From Escherichia phage vB_EcoM-E33, in the sequence record OL780484.1: DNA of 64,000 nt. One strand, written 5' to 3'. The notes under the pieces were generated by a model. It was not told the origin of the DNA and ran no database searches. It saw only the letters and a program-made list of their open reading frames with translations. Below are positions 1,414 to 56,508 of the stretch, in pieces. How positions within the stretch are numbered: position 1 is the stretch's first letter; every line of letters starts with the position of its first letter. Made by a program: the position numbers and the translations under genes.

Positions 1414-1908
1414 ATGGATATTTTTGATATGTTACGTCAAGACGAAGGTCTTGATTTAAATCTTTATAAAGACACTGAAGGTTATTGGACTATTGGCATT
1501 GGCCAATTGATTACTAAGAACCCTTCTAAAGATGTTGCTCGTGCTGAACTTGATAAGCTTATGGGTCGAGTTTGTAATGGTCGTATTACTATGGCTGAAG
1601 CTGAACAACTCTTTAACCGATCGGTTGAAAATGCTCGTAGAGCTATTCTGCGTAATCCTAAATTGAAACCTGTTTATGATGTACTGGACGAAGTTCGTCG
1701 TTGTGCTTTAATTAACATGGTCTTCCAAATGGGTGAAGCAGGCGTAGCAGGGTTCACTAACTCTTTACGTATGCTCCAACAGAAACGTTGGAACGATGCG
1801 GCAGTTAACCTGGCTCAATCCCGTTGGTATAAACAAACTCCTAATCGTGCTAAGCGCGTGATTTCAACATTTAAAACAGGTACTTGGAAAGCATATGAAA
1901 ACTTATAA
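1414..1908 (+). CDS. e: endolysin (T4 lysozyme)
   Basis: 164 aa; near-identical to remembered T4 lysozyme over its length (MxIFxMLRxDEGL...YKDTEGYxTIGIG...RTGTWxAYxNL). Confidence 0.95.
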
Positions 1909-2293
1909 TGAATTTATCGCAGAGAATGTAATTCCTGCATCTAAAGAACTTTTGGCGATGTTTGAATCTGAAGAGTTCACTGAAGAACTGAATGAGAACC
2001 TGACCCAGGCCACTCCTCAGGTTATTCGCGTTCGTAATGCCCTTCAGACAGGCATGCAGGCTCGTGTATCTAAGACTATGAAGCTGGCATTCACCACTTC
2101 TAAAAATGAAGACTATGGTGATGGTATTGCAATGAACACTGGGCAGTATTATGTTGAGTGGAATGGTGAAACCGGTACTGCTAAGATTCGCCAAACGAGA
2201 GCAGCGGGTGGCAAAATGTTGGACCTTAAACTGAACGTTAAAGAGAAAGACGTCGCGGCTTTGTTCAAGAATTGGATGAAGACTTACAAATAA
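1895..2293 (+). CDS. internal head protein (Ip) with capsid targeting sequence
   Basis: N-terminus [10 protein letters not shown] matches the T4 internal-protein capsid targeting sequence; 132 aa. Confidence 0.65.
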
Positions 2294-2343
2294 GTTTACA
2301 TCTCCTGTAGTCATGATACTATAGACCTATCAACTACAGGAGA
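2294..2343 (+). promoter_or_regulatory. early promoter (GTTTAC 2294-2299, TACTAT 2317-2322) with 10-bp inverted repeat TCTCCTGTAG/CTACAGGAGA covering the denV SD
   Basis: -35/-10 spacing 17 with TG extended -10; arms at 2301-2310 and 2334-2343. Confidence 0.6.
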
Positions 2344-2349
2344 TTAAAA

Positions 2350-2766
2350 ATGACTCGTATCAACCTTACCTTAGTATCTGAATTGGCTGACCAACACTTA
2401 ATGGCTGAATATCGTGAATTACCACGTGTTTTCGGTGCAGTTCGTAAGCATGTTGCTAATGGTAAACGTGTCCGTGATTTCAAAATCAGTCCTACTTTTA
2501 TCCTTGGCACAGGCCATGTTACATTCTTTTACGATAAGCTTGAATTTTTACGTAAGCGACAAATTGAGCTTATAGCCGAATGTTTAAAACGTGGTTTTAA
2601 TATCAAGGATACTACTGTCCAGGACATTAGTGACATTCCTCAGGAATTCCGTGGTGACTATACTCCACACGAAGCTTCTATTGCTATATCTCAGGCCCGT
2701 TTGGACGAAAAAATTGCACAACGCTCTACCTGGTACAAACATTACGGCAAGGCTATTTACGCTTAA
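2350..2766 (+). CDS. denV: endonuclease V (pyrimidine dimer DNA glycosylase)
   Basis: 138 aa; near-identical to remembered T4 endonuclease V ([28 protein letters not shown]...). Confidence 0.95.
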
Positions 2767-2808
2767 TTAAATCCGTGATAGAATACTTCTATCAACTTAA
2801 GGAATAAT

Positions 2809-3168
2809 ATGAAAACTTACCAACAATTTATTACTGAATCTACTCAGCGCATTAACGAAGCTATGTCTCCTGAACAATTGGCTAAGGCCAAAGAAGGGCT
2901 GAACCCATCTGAAGTTTTTAAAGTTACAGGTAAAGACTTTGCTTCCATGGCCACTAACCAGAGCTTGGCTAAAGAACTTAAATCTAAATCTAACTTCATT
3001 CATGCTACATGGAATGGTGATTCTCTTACTTCAATAAGTGTGTACAATAAAAAAGGTCTCCTTAAGAGTTCTTATGGCGCGGATGCCATCCGTGTTTCTA
3101 AATCAGATTGGCATAAAAACACTACTAAAGCAGAAAAACCTCATAACCCGGCACTAGACCATCTTTAA
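2809..3168 (+). CDS. internal head protein (Ip) with capsid targeting sequence
   Basis: N-terminus MKTYQQFITEST; 119 aa; first ~36 nt shared with the next gene. Confidence 0.65.
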   Translation: MKTYQQFITESTQRINEAMSPEQLAKAKEGLNPSEVFKVTGKDFASMATNQSLAKELKSKSNFIHATWNGDSLTSISVYNKKGLLKSSYGADAIRVSKSDWHKNTTKAEKPHNPALDHL

Positions 3169-3176
3169 GGCTTAAT

Positions 3177-3434
3177 ATGAAAACTTACCAAGAATTTATT
3201 ACAGAATCCACTTTAGTTTCTAAACGTTGGAATATGATTGTAAACGTTAAACCTTCCGGCACTGAAGTTTCTATGGCCGACCCTAATGATGACGAACTTG
3301 AGCACGCTTTTAGCTCTAAAGAAACTGACGAGAAAGTGGTTAAGCAACTGGTTGCTGATGCAGATCAACTTCGTAAAGTAGCAGATGTTGTTAAGCTGTT
3401 TACTAAGAAAGGTTTTAAACACGAAGAACGTTAA
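3177..3434 (+). CDS. internal head protein (Ip) with capsid targeting sequence
   Basis: N-terminus MKTYQEFITEST; 85 aa. Confidence 0.65.
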   Translation: MKTYQEFITESTLVSKRWNMIVNVKPSGTEVSMADPNDDELEHAFSSKETDEKVVKQLVADADQLRKVADVVKLFTKKGFKHEER

Positions 3435-3584
3435 TTAGCATTTTTAAATGGGAGCAACCTGGACCTCACAATTCTGTGAGGGACTCCCGCCAACCTGTAA
3501 TAAGGTCGAGCCCAAGTGCGGTAATGGGTAAATGCAGAAAGGGACGAATTAATGTGCCAAGGAACGGCCCTCAAAGGAAATACT
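3435..3584 (+). other. structured non-coding spacer (nested hairpins GGGAG..CCTCAC..GTGAGG..CTCCC)
   Basis: About 150 nt without a convincing ORF; nested inverted repeats; no cloverleaf recognised. Confidence 0.3.
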
Positions 3585-4112
3585 ATGAAATTTTTAACTC
3601 CCATTTATCTAACCTTAATGCACGCCTTCGCTGAACGCGCCATTGAACGTTTAGACTCAGACCAATATACCTGGTATGAACCTGCTTCAAGAATGCAAGA
3701 GTTTGGTACTCTTCGACTTGATGGCGGACGCCAAACAGGTAAAACAAGTGCCCTTGCTCAGTTCGCCGCTGATTGGGTTTCCAAGGGTAATGATGTGATT
3801 GTTATGTCGAGTTCTTCGCATCGCTCGCGAGAAATTTGTAATGTAATAAAACAGGTTTCTAAGGCACACCCACATCTCCAAGTCGAAGGTCCTGGTTTTG
3901 TTGTCTATGATACTGTGCGCAGTTTCCTTGATGAAGACAATTTCCATAAGTATCGTGGACTATCTGTTACTCGATTATTGATTATTATCGAAGAGCCAAT
4001 GCGCCTTCCAGCGATGGATAAGTTCTATGAAGCTTACCAGGTAATGATTAATAAATTTATGTGCCAAGGCGACAAGCCTTTGCCTCTGTTCTTTGTGATA
4101 GGAATGCAATGA
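3585..4112 (+). CDS. hypothetical protein with P-loop-like motif (GGRQTGKTSA)
   Basis: ORF 3552-4112; start placed at ATG 3585 after AAGGAAA SD. Confidence 0.45.
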   Translation: MKFLTPIYLTLMHAFAERAIERLDSDQYTWYEPASRMQEFGTLRLDGGRQTGKTSALAQFAADWVSKGNDVIVMSSSSHRSREICNVIKQVSKAHPHLQVEGPGFVVYDTVRSFLDEDNFHKYRGLSVTRLLIIIEEPMRLPAMDKFYEAYQVMINKFMCQGDKPLPLFFVIGMQ

Positions 4113-4405
4113 TGACTGATGAAGAACTTTTTGAGTTCTGTTATTTCTCACGTAAGGTTCGAAGAGAGGACCTTACTGCAAATTTCGAATATGCTTATTT
4201 CTACCCATTGGAATATGTATTCATGTCAGGGCCCTTTAAGGGCTCTCGTTTTAGATGTCATGCTCCTAGTATCCGATTAATGAAACAGGTTCCTTACTTC
4301 ACTCTCGAGTTCATCTCAGGGCCTTGTAAGGGTATTATTACTCGTAGTCTCTTGACTTATGACCAAGAGATTCATATGATTTCTGACTGGAAAAAATATG
4401 TCTAA
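4109..4405 (+). CDS. hypothetical protein with internal duplicated SGP(F/C)KG motif
   Basis: ATG overlaps upstream stop (ATGA); 98 aa. Confidence 0.4.
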   Translation: MMTDEELFEFCYFSRKVRREDLTANFEYAYFYPLEYVFMSGPFKGSRFRCHAPSIRLMKQVPYFTLEFISGPCKGIITRSLLTYDQEIHMISDWKKYV

Positions 4406-4616
4406 ATTGACAATTGAAGGTTCTGAAGAAGCTCTGAAAAGATTTGTTGAATGGCTTAATGGACCAGGTGAACAAGACTTTCTGGAAGTCTGGGATGGCG
4501 GTCGGTGGAATGGTAAAGAAATGATTTACCCGACTACCTATATCTCCGTGCAAGGTTGGACTGAAGGCCTTCGTTTGGTAGAATATGATATCGCAACTGG
4601 CGAGGAAGTGAAATGA
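4398..4616 (+). CDS. hypothetical protein
   Basis: 72-aa ORF in coupled gene chain. Confidence 0.4.
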   Translation: MSKLTIEGSEEALKRFVEWLNGPGEQDFLEVWDGGRWNGKEMIYPTTYISVQGWTEGLRLVEYDIATGEEVK

Positions 4617-4891
4617 TTGAAGATATCAAGGGTTATAAGCCGCATACCGACGATAAAATCGGTAAAGTAAACGCTATCAAAGATGCTGAAGTTCGTCTTG
4701 GGTTAATGTTTAAAGCTCTGGAAGAAGAACATGTTACTCATTATATGAACTTAGATACCGAAGAGGTTTCTGAACAAGAACTAGACCAGGCTCATGAACG
4801 CATCACCCAGATTCGTAATGCAATTGACCGTCTGAAAGAAGCAAGCATGTGGGCGTGTCGTTCCGTTTTCCAACCCGAGGAAAAATACTGA
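4613..4891 (+). CDS. hypothetical protein
   Basis: 92-aa ORF, start overlaps upstream stop. Confidence 0.45.
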   Translation: MIEDIKGYKPHTDDKIGKVNAIKDAEVRLGLMFKALEEEHVTHYMNLDTEEVSEQELDQAHERITQIRNAIDRLKEASMWACRSVFQPEEKY

Positions 4892-5100
4892 TGAAAATTG
4901 AAAGTTTACAAGATTTCCAGCGTATCATCGGTGAAGCCTGTACTGGCTACCACAAATACTTGCTTGACGACCAAATGGCTTGTCTCGAAGAAGGTGAAGT
5001 ACAGTATGCAGCCCAACGCCTTGAACAAGTGAAAGAGTTTTACCCTGTACTGGTAGAAATTTGTTCAGCTGCTGGAAAACTTACCCCATTCCAAGAATAA
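4891..5100 (+). CDS. hypothetical protein
   Basis: 69 aa from ATG overlapping upstream TGA. Confidence 0.4.
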   Translation: MKIESLQDFQRIIGEACTGYHKYLLDDQMACLEEGEVQYAAQRLEQVKEFYPVLVEICSAAGKLTPFQE

Positions 5101-5104
5101 AGCA

Positions 5105-5154
5105 GTTTACATCTCCTGTAGACGTGGTACTATAGACCTATCAACTACAGGAGA
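5105..5154 (+). promoter_or_regulatory. early promoter (GTTTAC 5105-5110, TG-n-TACTAT 5128-5133) with inverted repeat TCTCCTGTAG/CTACAGGAGA covering the regB SD
   Basis: Same architecture and arms as 2294-2343. Confidence 0.6.
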
Positions 5155-5161
5155 TTACAAA

Positions 5162-5620
5162 ATGTCAGAAATTAATTCAGAAGTATTCATCCGCCGCAAT
5201 AAATTACGTCGTCAGTTCGAAACCGAATTCCGTGAACTGAATACGTCCATCAAAAAAGCCGCCATCAAGAGCGGAGTCCCAGCCTTCTTTATTAAGTACT
5301 CTAATCACTTGTTGGACCGTGCTATCCAACGTGAAATCGACGAAAAATACGTTTTTGCTTTATTCAAGCAACTCCATAACCATGTTAAAGAAATTCATGA
5401 ATTTTTAATCCAGGAACCTCTACCTGATGTAGAATCCGAAATTGTCCCTGGTAAAGTGTATCGTCCATTGCGTCTCGAAATTACCGATAAAACCTTATGG
5501 CTAGGTATGACAGTAGACCGTAAACATCCTGATAAAGGATATTCCCTTAAATGTCGTATGGCATTTGTTAACTCTAAACGTTTAGAAGGTAAAACCAGCA
5601 CGAAAGTAATCTATCTTTAA
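5162..5620 (+). CDS. regB: RegB site-specific endoribonuclease
   Basis: 152 aa; EVFIRRNKLRR...HLLDRAIQREIDE...RLEITD matches remembered T4 RegB; T4-like position. Confidence 0.75.
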   Translation: MSEINSEVFIRRNKLRRQFETEFRELNTSIKKAAIKSGVPAFFIKYSNHLLDRAIQREIDEKYVFALFKQLHNHVKEIHEFLIQEPLPDVESEIVPGKVYRPLRLEITDKTLWLGMTVDRKHPDKGYSLKCRMAFVNSKRLEGKTSTKVIYL

Positions 5621-5632
5621 TAATGAGGTCTC

Positions 5633-6172
5633 ATGAAAAAAGTATTAGCCACTTTACTATTGACAGTTAGTATGTCTGCCCATAGCGTAGAGCCTACTTT
5701 CAGTAATGAACAACTCGATAATTTACATTATGCGTATGCTTTCGGTGAACAATACCAAAAGTCGGGAAAGTTCAAAGAAAACCCTAATCAAAAAGGATTA
5801 GGATATATTATGGCCGGATTACTATGGCAGGAATCATCTGCCGGAATTAATCAGGGTTTAAATAAAGATAAGCACCATGCTTATGGCATGTTCCAAAATT
5901 ACTTGCCTACGTTAAGAAGTCGTGTTCAACAGGTAGGTTGGAAGATGTCTGACAAAGAAATAATTCGTATGGTCCAAAAACGACAGAACAGTGCCTCTTG
6001 GGCCTACATTGAACTGTCTTATTGGATTGATGTTCACAAAGGTGACCTGAGAAAAGCGATTGCTTCTTATAATGCGGGCTGGAACGCCAAAGCAGGCAGT
6101 AAATATGCTTCTGAAGTTCTAGAAAAGGCCAATTACCTAAAATCTAAAAAGATGTTTGAGGCGGTGTATTAA
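5633..6172 (+). CDS. secreted lytic-transglycosylase-like protein (SLT domain)
   Basis: Signal peptide; SLT-like motifs WQESSAG, AYGMFQ, ASYNAGW. Confidence 0.5.
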   Translation: MKKVLATLLLTVSMSAHSVEPTFSNEQLDNLHYAYAFGEQYQKSGKFKENPNQKGLGYIMAGLLWQESSAGINQGLNKDKHHAYGMFQNYLPTLRSRVQQVGWKMSDKEIIRMVQKRQNSASWAYIELSYWIDVHKGDLRKAIASYNAGWNAKAGSKYASEVLEKANYLKSKKMFEAVY

Positions 6173-6529
6173 ATGATTAAGCAGATGACTATAGCGCTTA
6201 TGTTGATTGCTCCGGGAGTATTAGCGTCACAAGTTGGTGATAGTAATAATTCAATTGTCGAGTATGCTACCCGTACAGCAAAAGATTATTGTCATCCGAG
6301 TAATACTGAATGCATTATCGAATTCAGTTCAAAAATCACAGCTGCTTTTAAAGATGGGCAGAACGACGTAGAGCATCGTCGAATGAAAGAGAAAACTCTT
6401 TCTAAAAGATACGAGCAACGTCTAAACGTTACTGAATGTATTCCATCTGATAAAAAGTACAAAGAAATGTGCGCGTCTATGGTAGACAGACTCGTTGACT
6501 CTTACAACCGAGGATTAAACTCTAAATGA
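6173..6529 (+). CDS. secreted hypothetical protein
   Basis: N-terminal signal peptide MIKQMTIALMLIAPGVLASQ; 118 aa. Confidence 0.45.
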   Translation: MIKQMTIALMLIAPGVLASQVGDSNNSIVEYATRTAKDYCHPSNTECIIEFSSKITAAFKDGQNDVEHRRMKEKTLSKRYEQRLNVTECIPSDKKYKEMCASMVDRLVDSYNRGLNSK

Positions 6530-6993
6530 TTATTGATTATATTAAGGGCGATATTGTCGCCCTATTTCTTCAAGGTAATAATGTTGCACACGGGTGCAAC
6601 TGTTTCCACACAATGGGTTCAGGTGTAGCTGGACAATTAGCTAAGGCTTATCCGCCTATTCTCGCTATCGATAAAACTACTTATTTAGGTAATTTGGCAA
6701 AACTTGGCACGTTTACTCAAGCCACAGGTAATAATGGCCAAATTTGCTATAATTTATATACCCAATACGAACCAGGCCCTAATCTTGATTATGGTGCTTT
6801 AGTAAACTGTATGATAGAATTAAATCAACAAGCAAAAGGTCTTTTGTTTAAACCAAGAATTTATATCCCTCGCATTGGTTGTGGTATTGCTGGTGGTGAT
6901 TGGGACAAGGTTTATCAATTGATTAATTTGTTTACTCCTGATATTAATTTAGTGGTGGTAGATTATGAAAGCCCATTACCCGCATCCGTTTGA
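6526..6993 (+). CDS. macro-domain protein (putative ADP-ribose binding/processing)
   Basis: GDIV...NVAHGCNC...MGSGVAGQL and PRIGCGIAGG resemble macro-domain signature motifs. Confidence 0.5.
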   Translation: MIIDYIKGDIVALFLQGNNVAHGCNCFHTMGSGVAGQLAKAYPPILAIDKTTYLGNLAKLGTFTQATGNNGQICYNLYTQYEPGPNLDYGALVNCMIELNQQAKGLLFKPRIYIPRIGCGIAGGDWDKVYQLINLFTPDINLVVVDYESPLPASV

Positions 6994-8971: not shown

Positions 8972-8976
8972 TCAAA

Positions 8977-9002
8977 GGTCTCACTTCGGTGGGACCTTTT
9001 TT
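8977..9002 (+). terminator. rho-independent terminator
   Basis: GGTCTCAC-ttcg-GTGGGACC hairpin followed by T6. Confidence 0.7.
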
Positions 9003-9011
9003 CGTTTAGGT

Positions 9012-9040
9012 GTTTACATCCTCTAGGAACATGATACTAT
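9012..9040 (+). promoter_or_regulatory. early promoter (GTTTAC ... TGATACTAT)
   Basis: -35 GTTTAC 9012-9017, extended -10 9035-9040; conserved block ATGATACTATAGACCTATCAA. Confidence 0.55.
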
Positions 9041-9068
9041 AGACCTATCAACTAATGAGGAGAACAGT

Positions 9069-13165: not shown

Positions 13166-13420
13166 ATGAATATTAAAGCACCTTTCGCCGGTAATGTTAT
13201 TCGTGAAGATTCAATCGAAATCAACGGTGTGGTAGTTAAAGCGGTTTTAACTGATATCAAAACCTTGGTTAAAGTTGATTACTTAACCTTTAATTTCGAA
13301 AACATTGAAGGTTATATTAATTTCCCACCAAGCATTAAAATGCATGTACGCCATGAAACTTGGTCTAAAGCAGATCAGCAAAAAGCAGTAGATTTTATTA
13401 TTGAGTTCTTCTCAAAATAA
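13166..13420 (+). CDS. hypothetical protein
   Basis: 84-aa ORF. Confidence 0.45.
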   Translation: MNIKAPFAGNVIREDSIEINGVVVKAVLTDIKTLVKVDYLTFNFENIEGYINFPPSIKMHVRHETWSKADQQKAVDFIIEFFSK

Positions 13421-13488
13421 GTGTGTACATATGCTTTAAACGTGTTATTATAGACCTATCAAATCTACTGAGTGAAATGGAGAATATA

Positions 13489-14822: not shown

Positions 14823-14872
14823 GTTTACATCTCCAGTAGAAATGATACTATAGACCTATCAACTACTGGAGG
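14823..14872 (+). promoter_or_regulatory. early promoter (GTTTAC, TACTAT) with inverted repeat TCTCCAGTAG/CTACTGGAGG covering the SD
   Basis: Arms carry compensatory changes relative to 2301-2343 (CTGTAG/CTACAG -> CAGTAG/CTACTG). Confidence 0.6.
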
Positions 14873-22093: not shown

Positions 22094-22145
22094 ATTTACT
22101 TCCTCTCCTCACGTGTTATAGTCTATCCTATCAACACATGAGGAG
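22094..22145 (+). promoter_or_regulatory. early promoter (ATTTAC, TATAGT) with inverted repeat CTCCTCACGTGTT/AACACATGAGGAG covering the SD
   Basis: 13-bp arms with one mismatch flank the -10. Confidence 0.5.
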
Positions 22146-22151
22146 AACATT

Positions 22152-23221: not shown

Positions 23222-23289
23222 TTTACAAACTCTTGGGACCAGAGTATAATGGTCCTACGGATTATAACTTTAAAACTGAGGAAATTATT

Positions 23290-35318: not shown

Positions 35319-35348
35319 CCTTCCTATCAACTACATGAGGAAATTACA

Positions 35349-43492: not shown

Positions 43493-43516
43493 AGACCTAT
43501 CAACTTGGAGAACAAA

Positions 43517-43834
43517 ATGAAAACCATCGACTGTAAAGCAGAATATAAAGTGTATTATCATGGAAGTTGTAGTGTTGCTAATATCGGTAATATGCTTTGT
43601 CCTCCTGAGGAAACAGGAGTTCTGTCTGAAACCAGTCGTAAGAAAAACCTGAATCGTGTGTTCTTTACTGAAGATATCGGTTTGGCTAAGATTTATGCTG
43701 GACGTGCAGCCCGTTCAGTGGGAGGAGAACCTCGTCTTTATCGTGTAATTGCTCCGGTAGATGTGGTTTGTTTAAATGATACTAAAGGCGCTACGGTTTA
43801 TCATGCTGAATGGGCCTTCTGTGAGGAAATCTAA
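43517..43834 (+). CDS. hypothetical protein
   Basis: 106 aa from ATG 43517 after GGAGA SD; lies between 41 and dmd. Confidence 0.45.
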   Translation: MKTIDCKAEYKVYYHGSCSVANIGNMLCPPEETGVLSETSRKKNLNRVFFTEDIGLAKIYAGRAARSVGGEPRLYRVIAPVDVVCLNDTKGATVYHAEWAFCEEI

Positions 43835-44040: not shown

Positions 44041-44070
44041 GTTTACATCAAAGGGATAATGCAGTATATT
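44041..44070 (+). promoter_or_regulatory. early promoter (GTTTAC ... TATATT) with inverted repeat GGGATAAT/ATTATCCC
   Basis: -35 44041-44046, -10 44065-44070. Confidence 0.5.
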
Positions 44071-44098
44071 ATCCCTATCAACTACCGAGGAGAACATT

Positions 44099-49982: not shown

Positions 49983-50034
49983 TTTTACACCTCCTCCCTT
50001 CATGTTATAATGACCTCTAAATCACTGGAGGTCA
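49983..50034 (+). promoter_or_regulatory. early promoter (TTTTAC ... TATAAT 50006-50011) followed by inverted repeat TGACCTC/GAGGTCA containing the SD
   Basis: 7-bp arms at 50011-50017 and 50028-50034; SD GGAGGT lies in the 3' arm. Confidence 0.5.
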
Positions 50035-50035
50035 T

Positions 50036-51372: not shown

Positions 51373-51414
51373 AGACACCTATCAACTAATCGTCCGTAAG
51401 ATGAGAAAAATACC

Positions 51415-54700: not shown

Positions 54701-54751
54701 GTTTACTTCTCCTCATGACATGATATTATCTACCCTATCAACATGAGGAGA
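54701..54751 (+). promoter_or_regulatory. early promoter (GTTTAC, TG-n-TATTAT) with 10-bp inverted repeat TCTCCTCATG/CATGAGGAGA covering the SD
   Basis: Arms at 54708-54717 and 54742-54751; differ in sequence from 2301/2334 but keep complementarity. Confidence 0.6.
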
Positions 54752-54756
54752 ACAAA

Positions 54757-55266
54757 ATGAAAATTTATCGAGTGGAGTCATCGTTCAGTATCTTAGATAA
54801 CAGCGATGTTATAGCAATCACTCACCAACAGTGCCGCCAATTAACACCGTATAGAGGCTCGTTTGATGAATGGAGCGAAGGTTGGTTATTAGAAGTAGGT
54901 TTCGACAAACCTAATTTTAGACACCACCATACCAATAATAAAAATATTCCACTACCAGGTCAAGACAAGTTGTTGGTGGAAAATTCTAATAAAACCATTC
55001 GAACTAAGTGGAACCAGCCTGATTATGAAGGCTGTGATGATTATATTCCAGGTTGGTTTGTTAATCTCTACCATTTTGCTTTTGCCAGTGAGTATGATAT
55101 GATGCGCTGGTTCACTCGTGAAGAGCGTGAAGAATTATCTTCTAAAGGATTCTATCTTGCCGTTTACGAAATCCCTGAAGATGAGGTTGTCATTGGTGGC
55201 CACCAAGTAATGTTCCGCAAATCCCATGCTGAACTCGTAGATTTTATTGAATTGAGAACAATATGA
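54757..55266 (+). CDS. hypothetical protein
   Basis: 169-aa ORF. Confidence 0.45.
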   Translation: MKIYRVESSFSILDNSDVIAITHQQCRQLTPYRGSFDEWSEGWLLEVGFDKPNFRHHHTNNKNIPLPGQDKLLVENSNKTIRTKWNQPDYEGCDDYIPGWFVNLYHFAFASEYDMMRWFTREEREELSSKGFYLAVYEIPEDEVVIGGHQVMFRKSHAELVDFIELRTI

Positions 55267-55813: not shown

Positions 55814-55849
55814 GTTTACTTTATCGAGAGCCATGTTATAATGGCTCTC
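55814..55849 (+). promoter_or_regulatory. early promoter (GTTTAC ... TATAAT) inside inverted repeat GAGAGCCAT/ATGGCTCTC
   Basis: -35 55814-55819, -10 55837-55842. Confidence 0.5.
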
Positions 55850-56448: not shown

Positions 56449-56478
56449 GTATACAACAGGGTAGTAGTGTGATACTAT
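56449..56478 (+). promoter_or_regulatory. early promoter (GTATAC ... TGATACTAT)
   Basis: -10 56473-56478. Confidence 0.45.
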
Positions 56479-56508
56479 TACCCTATCAACAAATGAGAGG
56501 AAAATAAA

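Follow-up and report, generated by a model that had tools for sequence, protein, structure and literature searches.

Escherichia phage vB_EcoM-E33 carries, at positions 2,294 to 2,343 of the window (the whole stretch of 64,000 nucleotides from record OL780484.1 that was analysed), an early promoter whose −35/−10 spacer is complementary to the leader and Shine-Dalgarno sequence (SD) of the gene downstream. The locus raises the question of whether a promoter built inside an inverted repeat could determine if its gene is translated, since transcripts starting locally would lack the first arm of the repeat while read-through transcripts would contain both. The window derives from a JS98/JS10-like T4-type phage, and positions 1800–6800 share 92–99% identity (megablast) with JS98/JS10/WG01/PSD9-like T4-type coliphages. 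The annotated genes beneath this match are ipIII, denV, regB and vs; the open reading frame (ORF) at 2350 is endonuclease V (denV) from annotation in relatives, and that at 5162 matches the phage endoribonuclease family (RegB, E = 7e-72). All early genes of the window are carried on the + strand.

Early promoters were collected on the + strand of the window with a dedicated pattern, GTTTAC-N17/18-TAnnnT, which returned ~21 plausible T4-type candidates. The dedicated pattern was needed because a generic sigma-70 scan of the window showed no overall enrichment (49 sites vs 44.8 in shuffles). Each early promoter has an A/T-rich upstream region, and a TG-extended −10 box is usual. A box around the inferred start site, CCTATCAAC, is frequent (2326–2334, 5137–5145, 9044–9052, 14855–14863, 22127–22135, 35323–35331, 43496–43504, 44074–44082, 51378–51386, 54734–54742 and 56482–56490); its T4 version is CTATCAAC. 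Near-identical promoter cassettes occur at 2294, 5105, 9012, 13089, 14823, 43464 and 51344. Rfam covariance models gave no match at gathering thresholds across the whole window.

Table 1. Predicted parts of the early promoters in the window whose SD is complementary to promoter DNA
Feature	Position	Strand	Details
denV −35 box GTTTAC	2294–2299	+	early promoter
denV arm 1 ATCTCCTGTAGT, anti-SD	2300–2311	+	in promoter spacer
denV −10 box TACTAT	2317–2322	+	extended TG at 2314–2315
denV inferred start, near A2329 in box CCTATCAAC	2326–2334	+	T4 early-promoter geometry
denV arm 2 ACTACAGGAGAT, includes SD	2333–2344	+	12 bp with arm 1; ATG 2350
regB early promoter	5105–5133	+	−35 5105–5110; arm 1 5111–5121; −10 5128–5133
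regB arm 2 CTACAGGAGAT, includes SD	5145–5155	+	11 bp with arm 1; ATG 5162
Early promoter	14823–14851	+	−35 14823–14828; arm 1 TCTCCAGTAG 14830–14839; −10 14846–14851
Arm 2 CTACTGGAGG, SD of 174-aa gene	14863–14872	+	ATG 14878
Early promoter	22094–22122	+	−35 ATTTAC 22094–22099; arm 1 22104–22117; −10 22117–22122
Arm 2 AACACATGAGGAGA, SD of 60-aa gene	22133–22146	+	ATG 22152
Early promoter	54701–54729	+	−35 54701–54706; arm 1 TTCTCCTCATG 54707–54717; −10 54724–54729
Arm 2 CATGAGGAGAA, SD of 169-aa gene	54742–54752	+	11 bp with arm 1; ATG 54757
Variant geometry, promoter TTTTAC-N17-TATAAT, ModA/ModB-like gene	49983–50035	+	ATG 50036

All five arm pairs cited in the original prediction were found where it had placed them, at the promoters 2294, 5105, 14823, 22094 and 54701 (Table 1). 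At each of these sites arm 1 lies between the GTTTAC-type −35 box and the TAnnnT −10 box, and arm 2 spans the SD and stops 4–6 nt short of the ATG. The stems comprise 8–12 perfect bp, or 10–14 pairs when wobbles or one mismatch are included: the stem at 14823 has nine Watson-Crick pairs and one U·G, which is the last pair, and that at 22094 has 8+5 bp flanking one C·A mismatch (22112). At the five promoters the spacer is perfectly complementary to the leader over at most 12, 11, 9, 8 and 11 bp, respectively, and at the other sixteen over 3–6 bp; the cassette copies at 9012 and 43464 pair over merely 5 bp. A sixth promoter, at 49983, has a variant geometry in which the 5′ arm (50010–50019) runs from the end of the −10 box to ~+6 and pairs with the SD region (50026–50035), its partner just before the ATG being GGAGGTCAT (−14.3 kcal/mol, z −4.0). 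The arrangement had been ascribed to many early promoters; five of the ~21, with 49983 as a sixth, possess it, so that "many" amounts to about a quarter.

Among these paralogous copies pairing is held despite changes on both sides, as had been proposed. At 54701 the arms differ in sequence and complementarity is preserved (11 bp, TTCTCCTCATG/CATGAGGAGAA). The compensatory G-to-A and C-to-T changes described for 14823 are in fact, relative to 2294, a T>A in arm 1 and an A>T in arm 2; a terminal A>G additionally makes the U·G wobble. The denV and regB promoters of the window (2294–2344 and 5105–5155) have the same arms, whereas those of T4 (65413 and 62797) differ; in the JS98-like lineage the cassette seems to have been copied as a whole, with both its arms, from one of the two genes to the other.

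Perfect complementarity of at least 8 bp occurred at 5 of 21 promoters; shuffling the spacers 2000 times gave an expectation of 0.058 such promoters and never more than 2. Searching IMG/VR by pattern yielded 120 loci; with the promoters of the window added, 184 distinct promoter-leader units were obtained, which fall into 83 orthology clusters. With their own leaders, 21 of 184 spacers formed a duplex of −15 kcal/mol or below, vs 21 of 3942 cross pairs between different clusters; at the cluster level, −10 kcal/mol was reached by 18% of own and 2.4% of cross pairs. The shuffled-spacer test and the own-versus-cross comparison rule out a chance origin of the pairing.

RNA extending from the −35 box to the ATG was predicted to fold with −18.3 to −21.1 kcal/mol at the five sites (z −3.8 to −6.2), and none of 200 shuffles was as stable. 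Promoter-started leaders of 24 nt were predicted to be unstructured (0 kcal/mol). When the folded segment was extended by 40 nt on the upstream side and by 30 nt into the coding region, the predicted probability that a 10-nt window at the SD is unpaired, in read-through and local RNA respectively, was 0.07/0.44, 0.19/0.32, 0.01/0.54, 0.21/0.59 and 0.01/0.62. For the 5-nt SD core it was 0.00 in the read-through RNA at all five sites vs 0.31–0.68 in the local RNA. Both halves of the proposal are thus borne out by prediction: read-through RNA would fold over the SD in a hairpin of −18 to −21 kcal/mol, and local transcripts would leave the SD free, their leaders being unstructured and the SD unpaired with a probability of about 0.3–0.7. 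In most copies an inner helix between TGATA (extended −10) and TATCA (conserved box) is predicted to close the loop. The loops are long (21–27 nt), and for this reason the kinetics of folding relative to 30S binding are uncertain. U·G wobbles are present in the stems and fit pairing in the sense-strand RNA. With arm 1 situated between the two promoter boxes, any start 3′ of the −10 box, as predicted here, excludes it. The comparison that had been drawn with T4 lysozyme, whose 5′ arm also precedes the proximal start, is geometrically correct.

The reading that we consider probable, on the basis of these predicted structures, is that a subset of immediate-early genes is translationally insulated, their translation being gated by the promoter from which the mRNA originates. 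The 5′ arm of the hairpin would reside inside the promoter, in the −35/−10 spacer or, in the variant, between the −10 box and +1, and the 3′ arm would be the leader and SD of the following gene. RNA from the local promoter would start ~7 nt past the −10 box and hence without the 5′ arm, leaving a short unstructured leader of ~20 nt with a free SD. RNA from an upstream promoter would contain both arms, and a stem of 10–14 bp would bury the SD, resulting in poor binding of the 30S subunit. The gene product would then be made solely while its own early promoter fires, and later read-through or middle-mode transcripts would carry the gene silently; genes behind an intrinsic terminator would need no stem. 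The model builds on observed complementarity, predicted folds, covariation and the mutual exclusion of stems and terminators; we infer promoter activity, start positions, read-through RNA, the translation block and the benefit.

Covariation extends well beyond the window. The arms of the strong cases include TCTCC-T-GTAG, TCTCC-A-GTAG, TCTCC-AT-TAG, TTCTCC-TC-TAGTTG, TTCTCC-TCA-TG, GTTCCTCCGT and others, and each is complemented by its own leader. Thirty cassette promoters, picked irrespective of pairing except for two that were added, were aligned in a fixed register. The structure of 2294 gave 66% paired cells on this alignment compared with 35–48% in slid registers, both-side changes were present at 9 of 12 pairs, and the covariation score was 0.282 vs 0.177±0.018 in shuffles (0/500) and 0.087–0.183 in slid registers.

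Orthologous promoters, whose comparison the original prediction had called for, showed the same pattern: those of denV and regB keep pairing with many different arms. At regB the arms are ATCTCCTGTAG/CTACAGGAGAT in JS98-like phages, TTTCTCCTCTTTATG/CATAAAGAGGAGAAA in another lineage and CTTTTCCTCTTGACTG/CAGTTAAGAGGAGAA in T4, and in other lineages an SD helix of 5–7 bp is accompanied by an inner one, GGGCTAT/ATAGCCC. The SD stem is absent from regB in RB69-like contigs, where a hairpin enclosing the −10 box is all that is predicted, and an orthologous promoter in contig L023 likewise lacks it. The denV survey covered 39 loci (60–99% protein identity) with 33 distinct upstream sequences. For 14 denV promoters aligned with MAFFT, RNAalifold predicted no pairs, because a sequence alignment cannot bring the covarying arms into register; covariation at denV was judged instead by per-sequence folds and the fixed-register alignment. 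In the per-sequence folds the SD of denV is predicted to be buried in nearly every lineage, by at least eight arm variants in two geometries, with the arm either in the spacer or reaching from the −10 box as far as +1 (TATGATGTCCTCC...GGAGGACA is one example).

The same script applied to T4 itself (NC_000866) detected strong pairing of the spacer with the SD, of −17 to −22 kcal/mol, at 7 of 33 candidate early promoters, those of dexA, nrdC.9, regB, denV, alt.-2, rnlA and ndd.4. The arms at T4 denV are the same as those at denV in the window; the T4 ipII stem (CTCCTAGAATT/ATTCTAGGAT) leaves the SD uncovered. Since T4 has this pairing at seven promoters, promoters with a predicted SD-pairing arm are a property of the T-even group and are not peculiar to vB_EcoM-E33. 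Stem-loops ahead of denV, ipII and ipIII in T4 were reportedly noted by Valerie et al. in 1986 (NAR).

Insulation by a stem presupposes transcription from upstream. At the four paired sites with an assignable stop, only 0–4 nt separate the end of the upstream ORF from the −35 box and no terminator intervenes; transcription is therefore expected to read through. CTTCGG-loop terminators with T-runs lie just 5′ of five other early promoters (8974–9002, 13048–69, 43435–54, 48323–45 and 59701–18), and SD pairing at these five never exceeds 5 bp. Across the collection, an intrinsic terminator within 80 nt upstream was found at none of 22–23 strongly paired promoters vs 30 of ~158 others (Fisher p 0.016–0.028, a modest value obtained from instances that are not independent). 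The gene at 43517 has a terminator and 5 bp of pairing in the window, and in contig L076 it has a 14-bp stem and no terminator; in jumbo relatives, the denV promoter has its −35 box overlapped by a terminator instead. Taken with the mutual exclusion of stem and terminator, these two cases suggest that the two elements can substitute for one another in shielding a gene from transcription that arrives from upstream. The denV upstream region of the jumbo contigs (L170–L177, 345–378 kb) contains a GC hairpin and T-run whose stem includes a TTGAC −35 box (GGGTTGACTTCGGTCAGCCCTTTTTGCTATAAT), and by its sequence this element is a composite terminator-promoter of the KVP40/nt-1 type.

The original prediction had regarded the lysozyme mechanism as apparently generalised in this phage. 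This would hold for a subset of promoters, but it is not universal: in spacer-swap chimeras of 181 promoters, mean SD accessibility was 0.326 with the own spacer and 0.323 with foreign spacers (cluster-level p = 0.86). Occlusion of the SD by all early promoters is rejected by these equal means. The distribution of the spacer effect over the 181 units is two-sided. SD accessibility fell below 0.1 in 42 of 181 units with their own spacer, and the chimera mean fell below 0.1 in 11. SD occlusion would accordingly be limited, in these folding models, to roughly 15–25% of early promoters. At the promoters 44041, 55814 and 23221 the spacer is predicted to be held in a −10-box hairpin, leaving the SD freer than with a foreign spacer.

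A second class of hairpins encloses the −10 box and lies off the SD (55826–55849, 44053–44075, 56458–56484 and 23235–23255; for example GAGAGCCAT...ATGGCTCTC). Spacers of this class are predicted to leave the SD more exposed than foreign ones would, and the hairpins fit the published description of promoter early stem-loop (PeSL) cassettes. A broader reading, which we advance only tentatively, is that T4-like phages possess a general and evolvable promoter-spacer code, whereby the translatability of each mRNA would be set gene by gene by its source promoter: some spacers would hide the SD, along with its RegB site, in upstream RNA, some would be locked in a hairpin of their own, and other genes would use an upstream terminator.

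The stems might serve a different end. RegB cuts GGAG in early SDs, and secondary structure blocks this cleavage; the stem could therefore act mainly to hide intergenic GGAG in long polycistronic RNAs, so that only short promoter-proximal mRNAs are cut and read-through RNAs with downstream delayed-early genes are spared. The window does encode regB, the regB promoter itself has a stem in most lineages, and the SDs at 54747–54757 (GGAGAACAAAA) and 43507–43517 agree exactly with the published consensus GGAGRAYARAA, most other early SDs of the window being one or two positions off. RegB-like SDs are, however, as common at promoters that lack a stem, so the motif is no predictor of the stem, and denV-type stems are found also in lineages that may or may not possess regB. 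We consider shielding from RegB unlikely as the main explanation, although it is compatible with promoter-gated translation and could be its main selective benefit. Alternatively, the stem-loop could belong to a mobile promoter-terminator cassette of the PeSL type, attenuating or terminating upstream transcription and providing homology for gene shuffling, with only an incidental overlap of the SD. Near-identical cassettes do recur at seven sites of the window, and close relatives have different genes upstream of regB, the cassette marking the junction. Yet an incidental overlap leaves unexplained that arm 2 always lies over the SD and that the two arms covary; the stems are missing exactly where true terminators occur; and recombination requires homology rather than self-complementarity. 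Nor do the elements resemble terminators, having no U-tract 3′ of arm 2 (TTAAAAATG, AACAAAATG) and loops of 21–27 nt. These sequence features, set against the GC-rich stem, 3–8-nt loop and directly adjoining U-run of an intrinsic terminator, make such a function unlikely and led us to reject it, and none of the five stems was called in a terminator scan. As an account of the SD-covering stems, the cassette explanation appears distinctly improbable.

Two further readings place the function elsewhere. The upstream stop codons lie 6–11 nt before arm 1, near the reach of a terminating ribosome, and ribosomes that terminate there might open the stem at its base, giving coupling instead of silencing; translation of the downstream gene on read-through RNA would then need a ribosome from the upstream ORF to melt arm 1. 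At four of the five sites, however, the gap is at least 10 nt or the stop is unassignable, and a ribosome at the stop, judging from its footprint, would open the first pair or two at most. The arrangement is moreover linked to promoters rather than to stop codons, and in the variant geometry the arm, placed after the −10 box, is at least 25 nt from the stop. We regard such coupling as very unlikely. The symmetry of the arms about the −10 box and start site would also suit an element acting in DNA, either a palindrome bound as an operator by a dimeric protein or a cruciform modulating promoter activity. Against this, arm sequences vary freely between promoters while complementarity is retained, a signature of structure rather than of a protein-binding site; a protein operator is rejected on this ground. 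The U·G pairs are C·A mismatches on the opposite strand, and arm 2 is always the SD. We attach hardly any probability to a DNA-level element. Gating of translation by the promoter is the reading that we carry forward.

Hairpins that occlude a start site and contain a promoter are of a known kind. In T4 e, soc, 49 and I-TevI, the SD and/or AUG is held in a helix in transcripts from distal promoters, and a proximal promoter in or over the DNA for the 5′ strand yields proximal transcripts that are free of this strand and are translated; for e and I-TevI the long transcripts were shown experimentally to be untranslated (PMC3014915). The five sites of the window likewise have the SD in a stable predicted helix in read-through RNA, and a predicted proximal promoter placed such that its transcripts lose the 5′ strand. 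They differ in promoter class and position. The cases on record, e, soc, 49, I-TevI and some homing-endonuclease genes, all involve late promoters (PMC3014915), of the gp55 type TATAAATA in the four named T4 genes, whereas those of the window are sigma-70 early promoters of the GTTTAC-N17/18-TAnnnT type with the 5′ arm in the −35/−10 spacer. The implied outcome also differs: expression of the T4 genes is delayed to the late period, whereas translation in the window would be confined to the immediate-early burst. The early-promoter form is not among the cases in the 2010 review of T4 start-site hairpins (PMC3014915), and we found no description of SD occlusion by an early-promoter spacer in the accessible literature, though older print may mention denV stem-loops.

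PeSL cassettes, described in comparisons of RB49/phi1, PST/T4 and nt-1/KVP40, are repeated intergenic units of an AT-rich region, a strong early promoter with an overlapping stem-loop, an SD and an ATG, and are associated with gene shuffling (PMC2839356, PMC4122927). The ~21 early promoters of the window share the AT-rich upstream region, SD and ATG, and are near-identical at 7 sites. The PeSL stems have been read as terminators or attenuators and as recombination sites; those of RB49 are typically GGGG...CCCC and overlap the −10 box or sit inside the spacer. Neither "sequester" nor "translation" appears in the 2010 PeSL paper. In the window, unlike in the PeSL description, the 3′ arm is the SD itself, there is no U-tract, and stems are excluded where terminators are present; arm 1 occupies the spacer and arm 2 lies past the start site on the SD at the five sites. 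The PeSL model explains why the cassettes are repeated and mobile, but not the constant identity of arm 2 with the SD. The KVP40/nt-1-type PeSL, with a terminator over the −35 box, also insulates at the promoter, but transcriptionally, by a GC stem and T-run, whereas the insulation proposed for the window would be translational. T-even early promoters carry AT-rich stem-loops of variable size according to Repoila et al. 1994, as cited in the discussion of Arbiol 2010. The inverted repeat that Repoila et al. placed at the flanks of internal-protein genes was reportedly interpreted as recombination homology, and the T4 ipII stem misses the SD.

If correct, promoter gating would mean that translation of a set of immediate-early genes, including those for RegB and DenV, is set by promoter identity and not by the presence of mRNA alone. 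Transcriptomes of T4-type phages would need to be reread, as RNA abundance would not equal expression for gated genes, and the model would bear on explanations of early-protein shut-off and on the reading of promoter-overlapping PeSL stem-loops. Under the broader spacer code, should it hold, each promoter-SD cassette would be a self-insulating, portable expression unit; PeSL shuffling would be tied to translational function, and the classical distinction between immediate-early and delayed-early genes would be explained in part. The presence of stems at T4 denV, regB, dexA, rnlA and others makes the model directly testable in T4, and the arrangement provides a compact, naturally occurring template for the insulation of genes in synthetic operons.

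Two further arrangements were observed at promoter boundaries. Contigs L124/L126 and L127/L128/L137 share the same regB cassette but have unrelated sequence on its upstream side, ~60–100 nt upstream of regB, identity resuming at AAAGCA|GTTTAC; in this one case, the junction is of the replacement type predicted by the PeSL shuffling model. In the window, a 10-bp pairing, CAGTAGATTT/AAATCTACTG (13386–13395 with 13461–13470), spans the whole promoter at 13423, its arms lying at the end of the upstream gene and at +5..+14, and leaves the SD uncovered.
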